Source of the DNA: a virus
IMG/VR virus record: IMGVR_UViG_2518645528_000001
Reading direction: 5' to 3' (one strand)
Length of the DNA: 36,496 nucleotides
Below are positions 1,222-33,786 of the stretch, piece by piece. Under the pieces are notes generated by a model. That model was not told where the DNA came from and did not search any database. It saw only the letters and a program-made list of their open reading frames with translations. The first letter of the stretch is position 1, and every line of letters begins with the position of its first letter. Made by a program: the position numbers and the translations under genes.

Positions 1222-2675
1222 TAGTCTTCATACTCCCAATCGTAGTTATATTGCTGAAGCGTAAGCGACTCATGCACTCCCTTGCCTGCAAAACGATATT
1301 CTTGACGAATACAGAAAAAGTCCGTGGCTGCTGCTGCCAGCTCATCATAGATATTCACAGTCTTGCCTATCAGGTCAGTGTAATCGATCCAGGAAGGTAG
1401 CAACTCAAACGATGCTGTAATCATAGGGGCATGGTACATACGAACCTGCTGGATAGCATAATCGTCTGCATCGCCCTGTGTTGTGATATCGTTCTTCAGC
1501 AGCGCTTTTGCTTTCGTGCCGTAGTCGTTGATACTTTTTCCTGCAATCGCAAACGTACATTCATCAACGGTGATCTTGCAGCCTGAGAAGCTGTTCACCT
1601 CGAAAGCTTTCACAGCGCCGCCGCTGAGTGTCGCAAAGCGGTTGTTTGAGAAATGGAATCTTGTGGAATATGCAGGCACTTCCAGGAAGAATCGCTCGTG
1701 GATCTCTTCAGGTGGAACACCATCATCAGCGCCGTTGATCAGGACGTTACCTGTCTTGTCAGATCCTGTTGTGTTTTCTATCTTGATCCTCAGGTATCGC
1801 CTCTGTGCAGGCTGATTAGTCGCATAGAATTCTTCCGAGTTGGTAGGTATGCTGGTCTCTACAAGGATCTGTGTTGTAGCCTCCTGTCCTGGCACGGTCC
1901 TGTATAATTTGCTCTCAAGGCCGCCAGAGCCGTACACCCTGCATACGTTCAGCAGCCTTGAGTAATCTTTCTCTAATGTTTTAGGCGCTGCTAATTGAAA
2001 ATTCTTGTATATCTTTGTTGCAGCTTGATCAGTGTTCACCATCTGCGGAATTATGTAAATGTAAAATTCGCTTTGCAGTGCATCTATCTTTACAGCCCAT
2101 TCCCCGATATGTACTGTCTCTTCGATATCTAAAACTTGCGTCAGGTCCTGCAGAGCTGCAAGGATGGTTTTGCCTGTATAGTCCCTGCTGATCTGTGTAC
2201 CGAACAGACCCGCATCGTAGTAAGGCAGCTTAGAAGTATCGTATTTGTAGATCGCCTTTTTCGTGATACCGTAATCATTAGCGATTCGGCACAGGTCTGT
2301 GAAAATTGCATTTATTGTCTGATCTGTATAATCAGCGCCGTCATCTGGATCAAGTATAACGCCTGCAAGCTCTTTATCCCATGAAACTCCTGTTACTGAA
2401 AAGTTACTTTTGTTGTTGCCTTTGAAGCGGTAATCAGGATCTCGGATGAAGCCATCGAAGATCTTCGTAGAATTTGCATATAAGCGCACAGGCCGGATCT
2501 TCTGAAGCTCTGTATCCAGCGAAGAGCGCTTACTCTCTATTCGCAGCATATCGCCTGCGAAAATATCCCTCTGGAGAGTAATTATTGCGGAGCGCTGGCT
2601 GTCGTAGACTGATGAATAAGAGCCTGAGCCGAAGCCGTCAGGGCTTTTTACATATACCTGCAGATCAACTGACAT
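1221..2675 (-). CDS. Tail tip / baseplate hub-like protein (484 aa)
   Basis: Position between tape measure and fibre; own late promoter; size and N-terminal pattern fit hub proteins; no decisive motif. Confidence 0.55.
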   Translation of the reverse strand: MSVDLQVYVKSPDGFGSGSYSSVYDSQRSAIITLQRDIFAGDMLRIESKRSSLDTELQKIRPVRLYANSTKIFDGFIRDPDYRFKGNNKSNFSVTGVSWDKELAGVILDPDDGADYTDQTINAIFTDLCRIANDYGITKKAIYKYDTSKLPYYDAGLFGTQISRDYTGKTILAALQDLTQVLDIEETVHIGEWAVKIDALQSEFYIYIIPQMVNTDQAATKIYKNFQLAAPKTLEKDYSRLLNVCRVYGSGGLESKLYRTVPGQEATTQILVETSIPTNSEEFYATNQPAQRRYLRIKIENTTGSDKTGNVLINGADDGVPPEEIHERFFLEVPAYSTRFHFSNNRFATLSGGAVKAFEVNSFSGCKITVDECTFAIAGKSINDYGTKAKALLKNDITTQGDADDYAIQQVRMYHAPMITASFELLPSWIDYTDLIGKTVNIYDELAAAATDFFCIRQEYRFAGKGVHESLTLQQYNYDWEYED

Positions 2676-2698
2676 TGTTTAAGATATTCGCCTGTCAG

Positions 2699-2716
2699 TT
2701 TAAAAAGCTGAAAAAG
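2699..2716 (-). promoter_or_regulatory. Late-promoter motif copy (tail hub gene)
   Basis: CTTTTTCAGCTTTTTAAA, 24 nt before ATG 2675. Confidence 0.65.
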
Positions 2717-2784
2717 AATATTATGGGTTATTTTCCAGGAAATAATGCAAAATTATATATATGATAAATAATTTAATATAGAGC

Positions 2785-2988
2785 ATGGAACAGAAAGATG
2801 TTGAATTGGTTGAAGCAATCCCATTCCCATGGATTATAGTGCCTATAGTTTTTGGAATCCCTGGCGGGATCACTGCCTATCTCGCAACTCATGATAGAGA
2901 TCCTGAACAGGCCCGCGTAATGCTTGAAACAGGGACTGGAATATCTTTTCTCTGGCTCTTTTTCATTGTGGTGTGGTATTTCTTCTAA
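2785..2988 (+). CDS. Small two-TM membrane protein, antisense to tail operon (moron-like)
   Basis: 67 aa with two hydrophobic stretches; AT-rich TATA-containing upstream region 2745-2780; stop overlaps tape-measure stop. Confidence 0.65.
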   Translation: MEQKDVELVEAIPFPWIIVPIVFGIPGGITAYLATHDRDPEQARVMLETGTGISFLWLFFIVVWYFF

Positions 2989-4484
2989 GTCACGTTTCCA
3001 CGGTTTATCGTTGTCACTATTTTTTCTTCCATCAGTCGCTCAAGCGTCCGTCCGTCCAGCTCTATGTTGATGGTCTGCTGCATAGGCATATATGGTCTTT
3101 CAGGTTCGAATTTTGGCCTTGGCGGCAGGGCTAACACCTGTTTCTTGATTTCTGCCCCCTGAACCTTGGCAAGCGATTCTTCAAGCGTCCTGGAAGGCTG
3201 GAATGTAGCACCGGGTATTACGGAAGGCGTGGGCACACCGGCGCCGGTATATGAGCGCATCCTTACCCCGGTCGCAGCAACATCTGCCGCCTTCGTTCTT
3301 TCTGTGTTGATCAGCCGCTGTATCTCAAGCTCCTTCTGCTGATACTCAGCTTTCGCTTTTGCTGCAATGATCGCATCCCCGTCTGCATCAGCCTTTTCCC
3401 ATGCAATCCTTGCGCCGTCCTGCTCGATCTTGAGTAGATCTCTTGCATATCTCAGCCGTTCCTGCTCGATAAGCTTGGCCTTCTCTGCCGCAGATCCGGG
3501 GCCTGCTGTAATGGCTGCAATGGTTGCCTGAAACTCAATCTGACGTTGTTCTGCACGCATTGCTGCAGATCTCATTCTTTCCTGCAGTGTCTCGACCTCA
3601 CGTCTGAGCCGCTCAGCCTCCTCACGGGCATTGCTGAAGTTTGAGGTCAGCGAATCACCAAGAAGATCGGTTGCTGTCTGTGCCCTGGCTGCCTGAGTGG
3701 AGAGATAGTATAGCCCCCCAGCAAGAGCAGATAATATCAGCAGTTCCGGCGCCATCGCTCTTATCCTGGCCGTCGTCAGCATTGTAGCGATCTCTACTTT
3801 CTTGAGCTGTGCGATCATGTTGGTAGCGAACTTCACAGCCAGGGGTATCTGCCCGACCATCGTTACCCCGATCATTCCAAGCGATATGTTAGCCCCCATG
3901 TTGGCCTTATCGAGATTGTTCTGTGATCTCACGAGTTCATTGTTAGCTATGAAAGCTTCTCTTGAGTTCTCGCCATACTTCGTCACGGCTTCATTGTACC
4001 GTACCTGTGCGCTTGCTAATGTGGCCTGAGCATTTGCCACGTTGAGCTGGGAGATCTCGATGCGGTCAAGAGATGCCATGAAGACCTGCCCCATATGTCC
4101 GACTTGCTGCAAACTATGAGCGGATGCAGAGATACGGTCTGCGAATGATTGAGTAGCCACGGCGGCCTGCTGATTAGCTGTGGCGACCTGTTGAGTGACT
4201 GTCACTGCACTTTGCCCGGATGCCTTATATTCTTTCCACTCAGCTCCGATACGGCGGATAGCTGCAGTATGTGCATCAGCATGTGATAGGCCCTGTGCAA
4301 AGCCTTCTTTCATGTAAGGCCCCATCTTGCCCTTGATGAACTGAGCCCAGGACATGGTTGCAGCTTCTGCCTGCTTGATGTTGTTTGTTAGATTGTTTAC
4401 GTCTGCTGCTGCTGAATCTAATGATTCAAAGCCTTCCTTACGCGCTGATATTTTTACAACGATATCCTTTATTGATTCAGGCAT
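2985..4484 (-). CDS. Tape measure protein (499 aa)
   Basis: Ala/Gln-rich helical and coiled-coil composition, hydrophobic central segments, follows the tail chaperone pair. Confidence 0.8.
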   Translation of the reverse strand: MPESIKDIVVKISARKEGFESLDSAAADVNNLTNNIKQAEAATMSWAQFIKGKMGPYMKEGFAQGLSHADAHTAAIRRIGAEWKEYKASGQSAVTVTQQVATANQQAAVATQSFADRISASAHSLQQVGHMGQVFMASLDRIEISQLNVANAQATLASAQVRYNEAVTKYGENSREAFIANNELVRSQNNLDKANMGANISLGMIGVTMVGQIPLAVKFATNMIAQLKKVEIATMLTTARIRAMAPELLILSALAGGLYYLSTQAARAQTATDLLGDSLTSNFSNAREEAERLRREVETLQERMRSAAMRAEQRQIEFQATIAAITAGPGSAAEKAKLIEQERLRYARDLLKIEQDGARIAWEKADADGDAIIAAKAKAEYQQKELEIQRLINTERTKAADVAATGVRMRSYTGAGVPTPSVIPGATFQPSRTLEESLAKVQGAEIKKQVLALPPRPKFEPERPYMPMQQTINIELDGRTLERLMEEKIVTTINRGNVT

Positions 4485-5657: not shown

Positions 5658-5677
5658 GTTATAAAGCTGAAAAAAGG
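5658..5677 (-). promoter_or_regulatory. Late-promoter motif copy (major tail gene)
   Basis: CCTTTTTTCAGCTTTATAAC, 37 nt before TTG 5621, GGTGA SD between. Confidence 0.7.
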
Positions 5678-6540: not shown

Positions 6541-8252
6541 CAGTATGCTAGCCTCCCGCCGGTTTGTCGTTCTAGGTCGCTTGATAAATATGCTAGCTGC
6601 CAGAAAAACGCGCCTGCAAGCGTAGTGTCTGATGCCCAGCCGCCATGAAGACCTACGCGCCAGCCAGATCCCCCATAAAAATAATCCGTGATCTTTGTTG
6701 TGGCGCTAGCACCGACCGCAGCAGGTAAGAATCCTCTGCTTATCTTATGTAGCGTGCTCTGCCATCCGTTTGATGGTGGCAGGGCGATACCCAATGCAAT
6801 ATATCCTGTGGCTGTATTATCTGCGAATGTGGAATCGTTGTTCGATACATAAGGTACACGGTCATTGATATTGATACCATCAACCCATTTCAGTATGTGC
6901 CCGTACCAGTTCTCGATCCCTCTGTATGACATATACGAGCCGACTACACCGGCGCCGTTATCTACGTTGTTGGTTCCGTTCCCGTCCGAATTTGAGATGC
7001 CAGTATAATTTATGGGGTTGTGTCGGTTGTAGTTTAACCAGGACGCACCCCCCCAATCCGTCAGACCCTTACCTATCGCGCTCTGCGAATTGAACGAGGC
7101 ATACTCAACAAGATACAGCAGTTGTATCGCTAAGATCAGATCGTAATCCTGCTGCCGCCATCCTGCTCCACGGTTCTTCGCTGCTGCTCTGAAATTAGCT
7201 CGTGTGCCGTAATTGATAGGTGCTTTCCCGCTCACTGATGCAAGCTTATCACCTGTTGTTGCAGTCCAGTCTTTTTCGGTCTCAACTATTGCTGAAGCAG
7301 TCTCGTCTACGAGATCTTCTTCAACTGTGATGCTCTGATCGCCTGTCGTGGCCACTGTGAATGTGCCGTTGTTGTTCGCAGTGCCTGACACCTTTATTTT
7401 ATCTCCTACCTGCAACGGCGTGTACGGGTTGGTCCTGTTTGGCTGCGTTATAGTCTTTGTGGCTGCTGTGAATGTCGTTTGATCGAAAACTGGATCGTAC
7501 ACTCCATTTGTGTACCGTGATGCGGAGACATCATACATGACGCCTTCATATGCGCCGATATACCTTGCAGATACGTTCACCCCGTTCTTGACGAATGCAG
7601 GATGTAAAGTGAACCCGGCCTTCGCTACCGGGCTGATCTCCCATAAATGAACGCTTCCGTCATACAAATACCGGTAATAGAAGGCAGGCATTTCGACCAT
7701 GACCTGGCCGTCCGTGCCGTCGATGTTTGCAGGAGAGCCGTCTGCCTTTTTCGTCGAATCAGCCGGGTCAAGGTAATACTGCACAACCCCTGCATCATTG
7801 AGAATGCAGCGCTTCATAGCTGCCTGGATCGGAAGTACTGCATTGCCGGGACTTGAGCCGACCGCAGTGCCGTGAAGCGTGCCCGTCCTGGCGTATGCAT
7901 CTGCTGACTCGTCCCAGGTCACGCCGTACTGTACTATAGGATCAATCGTTCTGATCATCGCCGCCATATAGTATGCAGTAGCGCCCATGTATGTGATCTT
8001 CTCAACGCTCATGATCTCCCAGTCCACACCATCATACGTGATCCTGTCGCCCACGCTGACCACCTGCGAAGTCTTGAAATGCGCTATGAAGTCGCCGACC
8101 TGAATAAGCCCCTGCTTAACATACTTAGCGTCTGCTGAAGCTATGTTCAGCACCGCTTTGATATCAGTCTCGAACCCATATATGCCGACACCGATCTTAT
8201 TTTTATAGACTATGCTTGTCCCGTACTGCTCAATAAGATTATCGAAGTTCAT
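6540..8252 (-). CDS. Head-closure (stopper) domain fused to C-type-lectin-fold adhesin of DGR-target type (570 aa; start moved to ATG 8252)
   Basis: N-terminal ~100 aa with VGDRITYDGVDWEIMSV resembles SPP1 gp16-like stoppers; C-terminus GWRVGLHGGWA...AGAFFW...SS...GGRLAY matches the DGR variable-region pattern. Confidence 0.7.
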   Translation of the reverse strand: MNFDNLIEQYGTSIVYKNKIGVGIYGFETDIKAVLNIASADAKYVKQGLIQVGDFIAHFKTSQVVSVGDRITYDGVDWEIMSVEKITYMGATAYYMAAMIRTIDPIVQYGVTWDESADAYARTGTLHGTAVGSSPGNAVLPIQAAMKRCILNDAGVVQYYLDPADSTKKADGSPANIDGTDGQVMVEMPAFYYRYLYDGSVHLWEISPVAKAGFTLHPAFVKNGVNVSARYIGAYEGVMYDVSASRYTNGVYDPVFDQTTFTAATKTITQPNRTNPYTPLQVGDKIKVSGTANNNGTFTVATTGDQSITVEEDLVDETASAIVETEKDWTATTGDKLASVSGKAPINYGTRANFRAAAKNRGAGWRQQDYDLILAIQLLYLVEYASFNSQSAIGKGLTDWGGASWLNYNRHNPINYTGISNSDGNGTNNVDNGAGVVGSYMSYRGIENWYGHILKWVDGININDRVPYVSNNDSTFADNTATGYIALGIALPPSNGWQSTLHKISRGFLPAAVGASATTKITDYFYGGSGWRVGLHGGWASDTTLAGAFFWQLAYLSSDLERQTGGRLAY

Positions 8253-9761: not shown

Positions 9762-9780
9762 GTCATAAAGCTGAAAAAAG
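9762..9780 (-). promoter_or_regulatory. Late-promoter motif copy (holin-like gene)
   Basis: CTTTTTTCAGCTTTATGAC, 33 nt before ATG 9729. Confidence 0.65.
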
Positions 9781-11635: not shown

Positions 11636-11655
11636 TATATAAAGCTGAAAAAAAG
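11636..11655 (-). promoter_or_regulatory. Late-promoter motif copy (RHH/ParB-MTase cassette)
   Basis: CTTTTTTTCAGCTTTATATA, 25 nt before ATG 11611. Confidence 0.7.
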
Positions 11656-16383: not shown

Positions 16384-16404
16384 CTTATATAGCTGAAAAA
16401 AAAG
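16384..16404 (-). promoter_or_regulatory. Late-promoter motif copy (protease/scaffold-capsid operon)
   Basis: CTTTTTTTTCAGCTATATAAG, 23 nt before ATG 16361. Confidence 0.7.
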
Positions 16405-19414: not shown

Positions 19415-19436
19415 TAAATAAAGCTGAAAAAAAAGG
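19415..19436 (-). promoter_or_regulatory. Late-promoter motif copy (portal); T-tract doubles as array terminator
   Basis: CCTTTTTTTTCAGCTTTATTTA, 23 nt before ATG 19392. Confidence 0.7.
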
Positions 19437-19458
19437 AATTGAGTCCAATACATCTCTT

Positions 19459-19641
19459 GTTACATCCCTACTTCTGATAAATGTCACTCTTCAACCAGGC
19501 ACGGGCGGGTATCATTTCTCATGCAAAGAACTGTTACATCCCTACTTCTGATAAATGTCACTCTTCAACACCTGTCAATTATATCCATCAAGCAGGGTAT
19601 GAAAGTTACATCCCTACTTCTGATAAATGTCACTCTTCAAC
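19459..19641 (-). CRISPR. Mini-array: 3 identical 37-bp repeats, 2 internal spacers (37 and 35 nt) plus a terminal 24-nt spacer-like segment (19435-19458)
   Basis: Repeat GTTGAAGAGTGACATTTATCAGAAGTAGGGATGTAAC (minus) at 19459-19495, 19533-19569, 19605-19641; 3' end resembles Cas12f/Cas14 repeats. Confidence 0.93.
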
Positions 19642-19723
19642 ACTACCAGCCCGATATCGGTTTTTTAGCCGAAATTCAGGCGTGCTGGCAATTTATTGAA
19701 ATACTTATAAAGACAAGAAAACA
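19642..19723 (-). promoter_or_regulatory. Array promoter and structured leader
   Basis: TTTATAAG box just after the cas stop; CCAGC...GCTGG stem enclosing TCGG...CCGA and CCGATATCGG. Confidence 0.5.
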
Positions 19724-21295
19724 CTATTGCATAGACACAATATTATTTGCCTGATTTATAAGTTGATTAACTTCATATCCGCAGGACTCACATTTAAAGT
19801 TTTTGATACCTTTGATAAGCTGCGTAATCGCCTTCGCGGGTTTTTTCCCGTTCTTTTGCTTCGCACCACATGACGAGCATACAAGATCATTGCATTTGTT
19901 ATATTTGATCTCTACAATCGGTATGCTTACCTGCATCGCTTTGTGCCTTAGGTAGTCCTGCTGCTGAACGACTGGCCACAGGTTCTTCAGGTAATTCAAC
20001 TGCTTACCGAAGTTCTGTGTTATGCCATTGCCAACATCCCATAGCAGTATCTTGGGATTCTCTGACTGTTCCATGATATAATCTACCACCTTCCTTGATA
20101 TCTGGTGATTATACGTGGATACATACCTCTGTTCTACGTTACCTCTTCTCCGTATCTTCTTCCTTCTGCGCCTGATCTTTCTCATTTTTTCATCAGGTGA
20201 CTTTCTTACCGTAATCTCTGCCCGCTTCTCTTTGAAGTGCCTCTTAGAGAACGCAAGCTGACCTGTTGACATCCACTTAACCGAATTAAGCGCACCATCC
20301 TCATCGTATCCAAACACTCCTATCCTGGTTGGCGATGACAGGACAACGAACGGATCACACTCTTCAATAGCAGGGGGCTGCTTGACCTTGATCTCCAGTG
20401 GATACATTAGATAGTAGTCGCCATTCTTTTTTGTGATGTTGCAATATACGTTATTGTCTGCTTCCATCTTCAGGATATACTGCTTAAGATACTCTTTGCC
20501 CCAGAAGTCTATCCTCTTCCTGCCTTTCCCCCATAATGTGAGATAAAGCTCTCCGTTATCCCACTGTACAAACCCGGAAGCCATCATTATGGTTCTGCAC
20601 TCTTCAAGATGCGGAAATGATATTGGTCGTTTCAGCCGCCTCACATCCATGAGTTTATCATGCAGCCTTCTGATCTCTTTCTGTTCTTTGTCTGAGAAAT
20701 CACGGAATACCTCTTTTGTAGCATGTGCCTTTGCGGTTTTCCATATCATCTTTGGGTTACTGCGCTTTGTATCTGCTGCCTTCTGCTCTATCAGCATTGC
20801 AGCGTGCAGGTATCGCTGATCTGGATATGATGATAGCTCTGCTTCAACCACCCCTAACTCTCTGTTGCGCTTGATCCTCCAGGCATTGTATGATTTCCAC
20901 ATTGCGTATGCTTGAGAGAACAGCATCGCGTAATGCGTCTTAACCGGGATTTCTATGACGCTTTTTAAGTCGTTTGCCACTACACGGTCACCTACACCAT
21001 ATATTTCTTTTCGCACAGTGTATTCACTGTACGTTTTCATAGCGCAGGATGAGCAGTATTTTCGATTGGTGTATCGATTAAGAAAGGTTAGATTCTTTTC
21101 TGTATTGCATTCAGGACATACGCCGTCGATACGGTTTTCTTTCGGGATCTCTTCAAACCGTGAAACAAATACTTGATATCGTTTCTCGATTTCGTTCAGT
21201 GACCAGTTAATGCCAGTTCTGAATGCCTCAAAAAGGGTTTTTAGTTCCTGCTCTTGTGGTATTATCAAATTAAGCTTTATGCCTACTGTTTTCAT
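19724..21295 (-). CDS. Cas12f/Cas14 (TnpB-derived) effector, predicted nuclease-dead (523 aa; start moved to ATG 21295)
   Basis: MKTVGIKLNL start, CPEC...CSSC zinc finger, WPVVQQQDYLRHKA helix, CSSCG...FKCESCGY zinc ribbon, terminal N..N.A.NI motif; RuvC acidic residues replaced; adjacent array. Confidence 0.85.
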   Translation of the reverse strand: MKTVGIKLNLIIPQEQELKTLFEAFRTGINWSLNEIEKRYQVFVSRFEEIPKENRIDGVCPECNTEKNLTFLNRYTNRKYCSSCAMKTYSEYTVRKEIYGVGDRVVANDLKSVIEIPVKTHYAMLFSQAYAMWKSYNAWRIKRNRELGVVEAELSSYPDQRYLHAAMLIEQKAADTKRSNPKMIWKTAKAHATKEVFRDFSDKEQKEIRRLHDKLMDVRRLKRPISFPHLEECRTIMMASGFVQWDNGELYLTLWGKGRKRIDFWGKEYLKQYILKMEADNNVYCNITKKNGDYYLMYPLEIKVKQPPAIEECDPFVVLSSPTRIGVFGYDEDGALNSVKWMSTGQLAFSKRHFKEKRAEITVRKSPDEKMRKIRRRRKKIRRRGNVEQRYVSTYNHQISRKVVDYIMEQSENPKILLWDVGNGITQNFGKQLNYLKNLWPVVQQQDYLRHKAMQVSIPIVEIKYNKCNDLVCSSCGAKQKNGKKPAKAITQLIKGIKNFKCESCGYEVNQLINQANNIVSMQ

Positions 21296-21314
21296 CACAT
21301 TTTCCAAAATATCA

Positions 21315-21430
21315 CCTGTATTGAAGTAGGGTTGGCTCTCCGCCAAAATGACGGGAGCCACCTTGCGCGCTGTAACGGGCACGCATTGCACAGCGCATAT
21401 AGCACTATACAATCGCATCTTAGATATGCT
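21315..21430 (-). ncRNA. Putative tracrRNA in the 5' leader of the cas12f-like gene
   Basis: CCCTACTTC (21331-21323) complementary to repeat GAAGTAGGG; GTTACA (21376-21371) complementary to repeat 3' end TGTAAC; several stems; TATA at 21453-21460. Confidence 0.7.
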
Positions 21431-21474
21431 ATCGTTCCTATACATCTCTATAATATATAACACTTTCGATCATA

Positions 21475-21667: not shown

Positions 21668-23038
21668 CTACCAGCTCCTTTTTGATACCACTATGCTGCT
21701 GAATCGGTTCACGTCGCCGCTGCCTTCGGATGCGGTCACAGCGAAATCAAATGCGTCAAATGTGTCGTCATGCGATGCGTCCGGGAATAAGCAGAGCTCG
21801 TCCACAAATACGGCCATGTCTTTGCGCAGGAATACTTTCTTATTCTCGAATAGTGCGCTGCGCCTCTGCGCTCTTGTCACTTTGTCTTTGACCGTCTGCA
21901 GTTCCTTGATCGGAAGCGTGGTTGTCCTGATCAGTTCCTGCGCAAGAGCTCGCTGGTACTGGTTGATCTCTATTCCGATGCTGACAGGCTGCCACTGCTG
22001 CGCCTTGAGTCTGATGATCTCCTGCTGCGCCTTGAAGCTGAGCCGGTCGCGGTACAGATCCAGGACGTAGATACTGCCGTTAGGATCGATTCCTAGTGTC
22101 ATGAGCGCGAAGTAATCGGCGGTCTCTTTTTCGCTTATTGCGAGATCCACGCCCTGGTATATTTTCAGCTTCTGCGGTGCCCTGTCATGATCATAGAACT
22201 GCATCCACTCAAAGCGGAATATGTGCCCCTGCTTTGCCAGCTCGACATCGTTCTGGTATTGCATTGAGAATATAAGGCTGCCGAGCTCTGCCTTTATCTG
22301 CAGCAGATCCGTGGAAGAAAACTTTGCAGGCCACAGACTGGAGCCGTCGTCCTGGATGGCGCGCTGGATCTGGACGCTGTACTGCTTGCTGTCCATGAGA
22401 TCCTGGTACAGATCCAGCGGATGATAGCGCGTACCTATGACTACAAGCTGGCCGTGCGGTTCCAGGGTTGGAAGTAATGCAGTACGATACCACTCGCTGA
22501 GCTTCCTGCGCTGCAGCTCTGTCCTGGCGTTCTCGAAATCAACGATGTCGTCGGCTATGATAATATCAAAATGCTTGCTGATCACCGCGCCTGACGCACC
22601 TAATGCAGTGAGTGTGCTTTCTTTTGCCACTATGGTCCTGCCTGAAACGGAGAGCTCGCTTTCAGTCCACTTATCGCTTTTGAAAGTCCCGAAGAGCTCA
22701 AGCAGCCGTGAGTTTCCTTCCAGGTGTGCTTTCATTTCTCTCAAAAATGATTCTGCCTGGCTCTGCGTGTTGCTCACAACAAGGATCCTTGTGTTGCGGT
22801 TCTGTACTATCTTCCAGAGGCAATAGCCGATATCTCCTATCGTGGATTTGCCGAAGCCGCGCGGCGCAAGATCGAGCGATTTCTTACTGCAGGTGATATG
22901 CTCAAGGATCTTCCTGTGGTGCTGTTCTACCTGATAGCCCAGAACATTTCCCAGGAAATAATCTTGATCGAGCATGCAGAGCGCTTTAGTAGATAGCAGC
23001 CTGTTTGAGCTTTGATATGATCCTGGCTCTTCCGACAT
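21668..23038 (-). CDS. terL: Terminase large subunit (start uncertain, possibly 22975)
   Basis: Walker A APRGFGKST, Walker B IIIADD, nuclease GVDLA...DY and HDDTFDA. Confidence 0.93.
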   Translation of the reverse strand: MSEEPGSYQSSNRLLSTKALCMLDQDYFLGNVLGYQVEQHHRKILEHITCSKKSLDLAPRGFGKSTIGDIGYCLWKIVQNRNTRILVVSNTQSQAESFLREMKAHLEGNSRLLELFGTFKSDKWTESELSVSGRTIVAKESTLTALGASGAVISKHFDIIIADDIVDFENARTELQRRKLSEWYRTALLPTLEPHGQLVVIGTRYHPLDLYQDLMDSKQYSVQIQRAIQDDGSSLWPAKFSSTDLLQIKAELGSLIFSMQYQNDVELAKQGHIFRFEWMQFYDHDRAPQKLKIYQGVDLAISEKETADYFALMTLGIDPNGSIYVLDLYRDRLSFKAQQEIIRLKAQQWQPVSIGIEINQYQRALAQELIRTTTLPIKELQTVKDKVTRAQRRSALFENKKVFLRKDMAVFVDELCLFPDASHDDTFDAFDFAVTASEGSGDVNRFSSIVVSKRSW

Positions 23039-28782: not shown

Positions 28783-29477
28783 CTTACCCCCCCCTCTGCT
28801 TTTTCAGCCCGCCACTTATCCTGCTTTTCCCTTGCTATCTCTCGAAGCCGTTCTATGCGTGCTGATTTTTCAGTATTCTCTGTCTTCTCTTGATCCTCTG
28901 CAGGATCTGAATCTACATTTCCCAGCTTCGACAGATCGATTTCATTCAGACATGTCCGGATTATTGTGCGCTTGTTGCTTGAAAGACTACCTGTTGCGAT
29001 ATTGAAATCTTTTTTGCTTTTGAGCTGCAGCACTTTCAGCCGCTTCAAGCTTTCCATGTCTACCCACATGGCAACGTCGTACCCCTCTTTTGCAATGCGA
29101 AGCGATCTACCTGACTGGTGTACAGTCGTCTTTCCGAATCGCTTTTCAGGAACGCTTTGCCAATAAAAATGCGCGCATTCCTGGAAGCTGAACTGTGTTG
29201 TATCGCATGATACAATATTCGATACCTTATTCGTCACATCGTTTGATACATCATGCACACGATCGGTAATCAGATGCTTTGCTCTCCCTTCTTGCATGAC
29301 CGACTCAGGCAGAGGCACAGGTTCATGCGCTTTCTCGCAGCTTGCGTTCAGCATGAAGATCTCTCTTACTTTCTCGATCATATTCGTGCCTGTGCTGATC
29401 GCGTAGCTCTTGCCGCCGTCTTCTTCTACTAGAAAGCCTTCATCAAGCTGTTCTATCGAAACTGATATGTGGCTCAT
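28779..29477 (-). CDS. Hypothetical protein (about 232 aa)
   Basis: Long ORF with AGGAG SD before ATG 29477; no motif recognised. Confidence 0.65.
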   Translation of the reverse strand: MSHISVSIEQLDEGFLVEEDGGKSYAISTGTNMIEKVREIFMLNASCEKAHEPVPLPESVMQEGRAKHLITDRVHDVSNDVTNKVSNIVSCDTTQFSFQECAHFYWQSVPEKRFGKTTVHQSGRSLRIAKEGYDVAMWVDMESLKRLKVLQLKSKKDFNIATGSLSSNKRTIIRTCLNEIDLSKLGNVDSDPAEDQEKTENTEKSARIERLREIAREKQDKWRAEKAEGGVR

Positions 29478-32959: not shown

Positions 32960-33412
32960 ATAATCAGGAGTGGCATGGGGAAAAATTATAAAAGCCATGC
33001 CTTGTGGCCTATCCTGAAAGGCCGTGATAGCACTACTCAATAATACACTAGCCTGGGACGCCCTGACTTCAAGGGCGGTGCTATCTGCTAATAGATCATC
33101 GTGAAAAGTAAGGGAGAAGGCGGGATTGAGGTGGTGGTGTAAAATTAAACCCGCCTTCTCCATAGGGGGTGAGCCGTGGTGCTCAAGAGAGTGTTGGGTA
33201 GAAAAAGAGCTCACCACGGCCTCCTGCTCAGGAACTGTGGGAAACCTGGCAGGAAATGACCCGGCGGACTCGCACCGTCTGAACTGCTTTCAGTCAGGTC
33301 AGAATTTGCGAAAGCCGGGTGGGGATTAGGGGTTAGTCGATCTTGAAAAAAGCCAGCTTTCGCAACGGACTCTAGCGGAATCGAACCGCTATGATGTGCA
33401 CCAGCCGAGCCT
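32960..33412 (-). ncRNA. Highly structured non-coding region with two tRNA-like elements and several long hairpins
   Basis: Inverted repeats 33113-33124/33150-33161 (12 bp), 33173-33181/33212-33220 (9 bp), 33306-33315/33356-33365 (10 bp); T-arm-like stems at 33374-33390 and 33263-33279; TATA-like box 33432-33439. Confidence 0.5.
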
Positions 33413-33786
33413 GTGTTTATATTTCTATTGAGATATAAGTAGCATCCAGAGCATTTACCTTCCTGGCAACTGCTGCTGTATTTGCACCAACTACCTTTCA
33501 TCCTCTCACCGCCAGCACAAGAACGAGAATGTACAGCTCTACCATGATAATTGCGAAGAGACCGACCGCAGCCATTTTAAGCGACATTCAATTCACCCCG
33601 ATCAATGGGATATCCTCAATTGGAGTACGGTCATCTTCATCAACGAGCGAGAGGGTGTACACGAATAGCCCGCGCAGGCAGTTCTCACCCATGTTCTTCT
33701 CAGCCATCAGCTACCCCCCCAGAATATCAAGATCGGCGACATTGCCACTGCAAAGCCGAGAAAACAGACTATCATGAATTTCAGGA

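Follow-up and report, generated by a model that had tools for sequence, protein, structure and literature searches.

A trailing array guide partly matching the promoter of its own predicted nuclease-dead Cas12f-like cassette in an archaeal provirus

The stretch of DNA analysed here (IMG/VR virus record IMGVR_UViG_2518645528_000001, 36,496 nt, hereafter the window) carries a small cassette on its minus strand. In this cassette, a predicted nuclease-dead Cas12f-like effector is combined with a scaffold RNA resembling a trans-activating CRISPR RNA (tracrRNA) and with a short CRISPR array. The segment that follows the last repeat of the array partly matches the promoter of the cassette itself. An earlier reading made from the letters of the DNA (the sequence-only reading) had proposed that this segment guides the effector to that promoter and thereby autoregulates the cassette. 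The window corresponds to C5:243028-279523 of a 3.2-Mb, 10-contig genome (G000), which encodes McrA and shares its order with a metagenome-assembled genome (MAG) labelled Methanosarcinaceae. The genes around the cassette have Pfam matches to terminase, portal, Mu-F-like, HK97-type capsid and MCM proteins. Based on McrA and on these head and packaging proteins, we assign the cassette to a head-tailed provirus of a methane-cycling (mcrA-positive) archaeon.

The cassette is located between the terminase and portal genes. In the minus-strand reading order, the terminase large subunit gene (21668-23038) is followed by a 61-aa open reading frame (ORF) and then by the TATA box of the cassette promoter, TTATATATTA (21451-21460), within which TTATATAT occupies 21460-21453. 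Next comes the putative target of the terminal guide, TAGAGATGTATAGGA (21436-21450), which is separated by an untranslated leader of 135 nt from the ORF of the 523-aa effector (19724-21295). The tracr-like scaffold RNA (21320-21432) lies within this 5' leader. Behind the effector gene, an array leader of 80 nt (19644-19723), conserved in the homologous loci L007, L008, L017 and L020, carries a TATA box of its own, TTTATAAG (19711-19704). It precedes a mini-array (19459-19641) of three identical 37-nt repeats (19605-19641, 19533-19569 and 19459-19495), which enclose spacer 1 (35 nt, 19570-19604) and spacer 2 (37 nt, 19496-19532). The terminal segment after the last repeat, AAGAGATGTATTGGACTCAATTCC (24 nt, 19458-19435), begins with the 15 nt regarded as the guide proper of a terminal CRISPR RNA (crRNA), AAGAGATGTATTGGA (19444-19458). 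The remaining sequence up to the portal gene (19392-18175, Pfam) includes the viral flank CTCAATTCC, a run of eight T residues (T8), CAGC and TTTATTTA, together spanning 19415-19443 and ending in a late-promoter motif.

The terminal segment is identical to the promoter target at 13 of 15 positions, 10 of them consecutive. Immediately 5' of the target stands TTA, in full ATTA (21454-21451), the last four nucleotides of the TATA box and a putative protospacer adjacent motif (PAM). The two mismatches fall on guide positions 1 (rA:dA) and 12 (rU:dT), and contiguous pairing is confined to positions 2-11. Within the window, the promoter is the sole match with at most two mismatches, where 0.08 would be expected by chance; when three mismatches are allowed, one further, intragenic site appears, in agreement with chance. 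On re-reading, the sequences, the coordinates, the extent of the match and the preceding TTA were all found to be as the sequence-only reading had given them, and to its caveat about position 1 the mismatch at position 12 has to be added. It had also placed the target between the TATA box and the predicted start of the tracr/cas transcript. The family alignment agrees with this placement: in all 14-16 homologous loci the TATA box stands at a constant distance from the first stem-loop of the conserved, covarying RNA upstream of the gene, and the transcript would start near 21430.

The promoter match stops precisely where the viral late-promoter sequence starts. The motif T5-8-CAGC-TATA is present in six minus-strand copies in front of late genes. 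Its element TTTTTCAGC, directly before the TATA box, occurs seven times against 0.7 expected (2707-2715, 5666-5674, 9770-9778, 11644-11652, 16392-16400 and 19423-19431 on the minus strand, 28800-28808 on the plus strand), which bears out the late-promoter motif named in the earlier reading. One motif copy (19434-19415) comes directly after the terminal segment. Its T-run is preceded by 9 nt, CTCAATTCC, similar to the corresponding stretch of another copy, TTCATTTCC, indicating that guide positions 16-24 are viral flank and that the cassette-borne guide comprises exactly the 15 promoter-matching nucleotides. The T8 run is a plausible archaeal terminator, and since it follows the terminal segment, formation of a terminal crRNA would be the default. 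When the 110-nt regions around guide and target were aligned locally, a 14-nt core only was returned, with no likeness in the flanks, which rules out a larger duplication. Cofolding also suggested that the tracr 5' end pairs with the terminal guide over 6 bp; this was treated as noise.

In order to judge the rarity of the match, the first 15-16 nt of the terminal guide were compared with 6.4 million positions of G000 on both strands. Besides the guide itself, 13 sites reach at least 13/15 (first 15 nt). Only two sites at this level are flanked by TTR, namely the cassette's own promoter (ATTA) and C1:508549 in the host cas1 gene (ATTG). For the terminal guide, the number of PAM-flanked matches expected by chance in ~120 promoter positions is about 2-4e-5; without the PAM requirement and summed over three guides and two promoters, it is about 4e-3. 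The sequence-only reading, with its estimate of roughly 1 in 10^4, thus had the order of magnitude right. An empirical control compared 91 guides, taken from 11 homologous loci, with their own cas or array promoters, and none has a TTR-flanked match of at least 11/15. Given the low anchored, PAM-flanked expectation and the empty control, pure coincidence appears unlikely as the source of the promoter match.

The effector aligns over its full length with the NCBIfam model of Cas12f2 (E 3e-36), at 125 bits compared to a cut-off of 450, and the C-terminal zinc-ribbon (Pfam TNB) scores 21.8 bits, which is below the gathering threshold. Its AlphaFold model (predicted local distance difference test, pLDDT, 86) has AsCas12f, CnCas12f1, OsCas12f and SpCas12f1 as top Foldseek matches. 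Judged by profile and modelled fold, the protein is a small TnpB-like/Cas12f-fold effector with a TNB region, related to Cas12f2 and not a curated member of it. An intact RuvC Asp-Glu-Asp triad is lacking. In an alignment of 76 homologues spanning two clades, the RuvC-II Glu position is occupied by Trp (W419) in 75 and the RuvC-III Asp position by Leu (L512) in 74. Profile alignment to AsCas12f pairs the RuvC-II Glu with the invariant Trp and the RuvC-III Asp with Leu, and the Asp-to-Leu change is seen again in a profile-profile alignment to a TnpB. In the model, W419 closes strand 414-419 and L512 starts the last helix, which are the canonical catalytic positions, while D314 (73 Asp, 3 Glu; strand 314-320) is the candidate RuvC-I residue. 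Since both substitutions are fixed at catalytic positions, the effector is predicted to be nuclease-dead, as had been supposed before, and the family is predicted to bind DNA without cutting it. Binding would then repress rather than cut.

The scaffold RNA has a consensus fold over 16 loci with compensatory changes in 15 of its 20 pairs. At its 3' end lies the anti-repeat CCCTACTTC (21331-21323), which pairs with the repeat bases GAAGTAGGG; when scaffold RNA and repeat are cofolded, CCCUACUUC pairs with GAAGUAGGG. The scaffold loop GTTACA (21376-21371) complements the last six bases of the repeat, TGTAAC. This contact between handle and anti-handle covaries, reading TACAAC-GTTGTA in L013 and TGCAAC-GTTGCA in L008 and L003. 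The pairings fix the direction of array transcription and identify the 3' ~13 nt of the repeat as the handle. No Rfam family matches anywhere in the window.

In a short-query BLAST with the three guides, spacer 2 matched C1:493596-493632 (L022:7597-7633) of the same genome perfectly (37/37), directly preceded by TTTA, whereas spacer 1 has no target in G000 or in viral contigs. The protospacer of spacer 2 is located inside a 951-aa ORF between an integrase and a split terminase, and the crRNA would pair with the coding strand. This ORF has no relative in Pfam, PHROG, NCBIfam or PDB. The region is a second integrated element (provirus), only distantly related to the one that carries the cassette. 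The effector PAM would accordingly be read as T-rich and 5' (TTTA), in line with the TTR-type motif guessed in the earlier reading. As in subtype V-F, a tracr-like RNA that carries an anti-repeat and a neighbouring array are thus present together with a T-rich 5' PAM, which comes from a single protospacer. One genome holds both the effector and a perfect, PAM-flanked target, and the target is therefore tolerated, as expected of an effector that does not cut.

In the likeliest reading, which we put forward tentatively, the cassette would be a self-contained natural CRISPR interference (CRISPRi) unit, consisting of a TATA promoter, a tracr-like RNA, a dead Cas12f-like protein and, behind a second promoter, an array of three repeats. 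The array transcript would read through the last repeat and end at T8, giving rise to the terminal crRNA, and this crRNA would use its 15-nt guide to pair with the cassette core promoter on the template strand. With an ATTA PAM that overlaps the TATA box and an R-loop spanning ~-20 to -6, the bound complex would exclude the TATA-binding protein (TBP), transcription factor B (TFB) and RNA polymerase. The tracr-effector transcript would thereby be repressed in a negative feedback comparable to that of CreR and tracr-L. The reading builds on the match, its rarity, its PAM compatibility and its promoter location, on the dead RuvC motifs and on the scaffold RNA with its repeat pairing. It supposes in addition that the terminal crRNA is produced and taken up by the effector, that 13/15 with a mismatch at position 1 suffices for binding, and that binding represses. 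We consider autorepression by this route a real possibility, somewhat short of an even chance.

Several observations weigh against it. Guide position 1 is mismatched at the promoter target, and in bacterial dCas12f systems PAM-proximal pairing matters most (PMC13472631). The PAM rests on one protospacer, the terminal guide pairs better with host cas1 than with its own promoter, and the finding was selected post hoc, very many windows having been scanned. The 10-nt core of the match furthermore resembles the 3' handle of the repeat, TAGGGATGTA, at 9/10 and 8/9, and a shared motif could explain part of the similarity. Finally, PAM-flanked complementarity between guide and promoter is absent from the loci with readable arrays, namely L013 (13 repeats), L012, L008, L006, L003, L007 and L014-L019. 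The sequence-only reading had looked to homologous loci for covariation of spacer and promoter and had stated that a lack of such complementarity would refute the proposal; it is indeed lacking in the 11 loci tested. Family-wide autoregulation is thereby ruled out (0/91 guides), and autoregulation is not a family trait. What stands of the original proposal is a guide-start-anchored, PAM-compatible match to the core promoter, backed by an effector predicted to be dead; what does not is its recurrence in related loci, and the better pairing with cas1 has to be set against it.

The compared loci are only 54-63% identical in protein, which makes them a weak test of conservation. Genome and metagenome scans yielded nine loci, and the effector gene is carried by 2 of 392 genomes of the class. 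Most of the closest relatives (65-70% identity) are found on contigs that end inside the array, which leaves their terminal guides unreadable. Scans of viral contigs with the protein, two alignments and the repeat returned no useful closer relatives for covariation. Relatives of the portal protein were found neither in 61 related genomes nor in viral contigs, precluding an empty-site comparison. A guide at 5907 of L014/L015 matches the TATA region at 13/15; it is flanked by TCTA instead of a TTR PAM and was counted as chance.

The match might also be without consequence: the 24 nt after the last repeat would then be plain flank, and a terminal transcript might form while its likeness to the promoter means nothing. 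The shortness of the match, the mismatch at its first position, the want of the feature in every homologous locus tested and the post hoc choice all fit such a coincidence. The region is moreover AT-rich with common TTR motifs, and when the two 110-nt regions are aligned locally without anchoring, the score is reached in 1.6% of shuffles. The anchored, PAM-flanked expectation of about 2e-5 to 4e-3 and the control of 0/91 speak against it, as does the fact that the sole other PAM-flanked site in the genome, in host cas1, is itself biologically pointed. On balance, we regard coincidence as unlikely, yet as an explanation to be taken seriously. Shared descent without function would account for the likeness in another way, both 15-mers being decayed 3' handles of the repeat or a scar left by recombination when the cassette was assembled or inserted. 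Besides the resemblance of both sites to TAGGGATGTA, this is favoured by handle-only mini-repeats scattered around homologous loci, including upstream of the promoters in L005 and L013, by recombination that duplicates pieces within the arrays of L008, and by the position of the two sites as direct repeats near the two ends of the cassette. Between themselves, however, the sites agree at 13/15, compared to 9/15 for either with the handle. That the two copies flank an inserted cassette as direct repeats, or as a duplication of its target site, was ruled out, since upstream of the left copy the GAAA resembling a B recognition element (BRE) and the TATA box are both parts of the conserved module, which makes that copy internal and not a boundary repeat, and since the flanks share no similarity. 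Even with such an origin, the resulting crRNA would still bind a PAM-flanked site. We therefore give little credence to shared descent as the whole explanation.

A different purpose of the same guide is raised by the site in host cas1 (C1:508545-508563; L048:3546-3564), where ATTG is followed by AAGAAATGTATTGG ~190 nt into the gene. The terminal guide might send the dead effector there and damp spacer acquisition, with the promoter match secondary or incidental. Phage crRNA-like RNAs that silence host cas genes are on record (10.1101/2024.10.29.618823). Here, 13 of 14 positions are identical and the sole difference is an rG:dT wobble, leaving 14 nt that pair contiguously from position 1. The gene product is a Cas1 (PF01867, E 1e-86) flanked by Cas4 and Cas2, the cas4-cas1-cas2 operon adjoins host arrays with 42 repeats in total, and within the genus, some relatives have the site conserved in their cas1. 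One host spacer (36 nt, C1:507094) partly matches the provirus at 33392-33427, with 27/36 identical in an ungapped alignment and a near end-to-end match once the provirus is granted an insertion of 4 nt; the protospacer is accordingly taken to be old or escaped, and a past conflict between host and provirus is suggested. Against a role in anti-defence, the site is intragenic and the crRNA would pair with the coding strand, and RNA polymerase would reach the PAM-distal end first. An encounter in this order is a weak orientation for dCas12a roadblocks. About one PAM-flanked match is also expected by chance genome-wide, with a likelihood of ~1-5% that it falls in some defence gene, and the second cas1 copy of G000 is devoid of such a site. 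The cas1 match is thus only suggestive as a real target, and anti-defence as the main role of the guide seems improbable. A division of labour among the guides appears just as doubtful: spacer 2 would silence the rival provirus, while the 15-nt trailing guide, as a compromise with 13/15 to each of two targets, would both throttle its own promoter and silence host cas1. With regard to the matched stretch of the provirus, 33392-33427 falls within what the sequence-only reading labelled a structured-RNA cassette.

Autorepression of the proposed kind would resemble that by CreR RNAs of types I-B, I-E and V-A (Liu et al., 10.1101/2023.03.10.532045; Shmakov et al., 10.1101/2023.03.03.530964), in which a repeat-derived handle and a short partial guide address a PAM-flanked site at the effector promoter, with binding in place of cutting and negative feedback as the outcome. 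CreR represses cas12a through a partial match flanked by TTTA beside the promoter, and the PAM of Cas12a is likewise TTTA (10.1101/2023.03.10.532045). Measured by the features of CreR, the cassette has the handle, the ATTA, the location in the promoter and a 13/15 match with position 1 mismatched, and it lacks recurrence in related loci. Whereas CreR RNAs derive from degenerate stand-alone mini-arrays, usually upstream of cas, the candidate regulator comes last in the main array and follows a perfect repeat. In contrast to CreR, the cassette effector would already be dead, and partial pairing would not be needed against self-cleavage; the setting is an archaeal virus with a TATA/TFB-type promoter. 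Subtype V-F is not mentioned in the text of the survey by Shmakov et al. (10.1101/2023.03.03.530964).

A second parallel is tracr-L of Streptococcus pyogenes Cas9, which, according to the summary of Workman et al. 2021 given in 10.1101/2023.03.03.530964, is a natural guide that forms a short, 11-bp duplex with the promoter of its own operon and represses it. In that account, tracr-L is broadly, though not universally, conserved. It differs from the cassette in belonging to type II, in that the guide is part of a long tracrRNA form and not of a crRNA, and in that the effector is an active nuclease.

The bacterial dCas12f-sigmaE systems (PMC13472631) share with the cassette a RuvC-inactivated Cas12f homologue and a short guide (14-16 nt), and some of their guides, whose genes lie immediately downstream of the locus, are directed at sequence upstream of it, which amounts to auto-regulation in cis. 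They activate through an extracytoplasmic function (ECF) sigma factor, use a single guide RNA without tracrRNA, owe their inactivation to a C-terminal truncation and are chromosomal in Bacteroidota. The cassette has neither an operonic rpoE nor a single guide RNA of this kind: no sigma factor gene was found among its neighbours (terminase, 61-aa ORF, portal, MCM), it combines a tracr-like RNA with an array, and its effector would be inactivated by point substitutions. As it lies in an archaeal provirus and its putative target is a core promoter, repression would be expected instead of activation.

Cas12m (subtype V-M) and virus-borne mini-arrays (PMC11656645) offer a further comparison, as an element-borne type V effector silences by binding instead of cutting. 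Spacer 2, with its target in another integrated element, fits the competition between viruses or between plasmids described there. Cas12m belongs to another Cas12 lineage and has no tracrRNA, and no self-promoter guide is described for it in PMC11656645. Classical viral mini-arrays borrow host Cas proteins, whereas the virus studied here brings its own effector.

RNA-guided autorepression of cas genes is already established in types I, II-A and V-A, as is positive self-regulation in bacterial dCas12f-sigmaE. Descriptions of such autorepression cover no V-F-like effector, no archaeal TATA promoter and no virus-borne nuclease-dead effector. Also new would be the way in which an archaeal virus, a dead effector of V-F-like type with tracr-like RNA and array, and a trailing array unit as regulator are combined. 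If the reading is true, viruses use miniature CRISPRi devices with built-in dosage control, and the cassette provides a compact natural repressor (523 aa) with a defined PAM and a 15-nt guide requirement. With its two extra targets, the rival provirus and possibly host cas1, it would present a testable case of RNA-guided silencing in virus-virus and virus-host conflict among methane-cycling archaea.

Further observations were made on the homologous loci. In the arrays of L014 (5630-6200), L016 (5610-6170), L018 (4850-5330) and L019 (5610-6400), the repeat is represented by its 3' ~12 nt alone (TAAGGATGTAAC), at intervals of 33-45 nt. Even with an effector identity of only ~55% between the viruses, several guides are conserved, such as CTTTAAGGGCGATTAG in L016 and L019, and the conserved guides in the arrays of L014-L019 look like fixed regulatory guides rather than immune spacers. 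The module of L005 (176-231; same record as L047, from a MAG labelled Methanosarcinaceae) has no downstream array and instead a single handle-plus-guide unit ~170 nt upstream of the TATA box. Handle-like units upstream of the promoter are found in L013 as well (3803-3815, 1022 and 1067). The array of L008 (4477-4640) holds a duplicated 3' end of the effector gene and the array leader between its repeats, indicating that recombination occurs within these arrays; one of its guides is identical to the effector gene's own 3' end, with no TTR PAM. The Trp and Leu substitutions are shared by the more distant effector clade (L043-L046, identity 35-40%), in which the scaffold RNA is still found upstream of the gene, with a MazE-like gene also upstream and neither array nor handle within 3.5 kb (L043:3300-3500 region). 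In L012, IS200/IS605-type TnpA and TnpB genes (2046-3638 and 6710-7882) flank the module and set the effector apart from its array by 2.3 kb.

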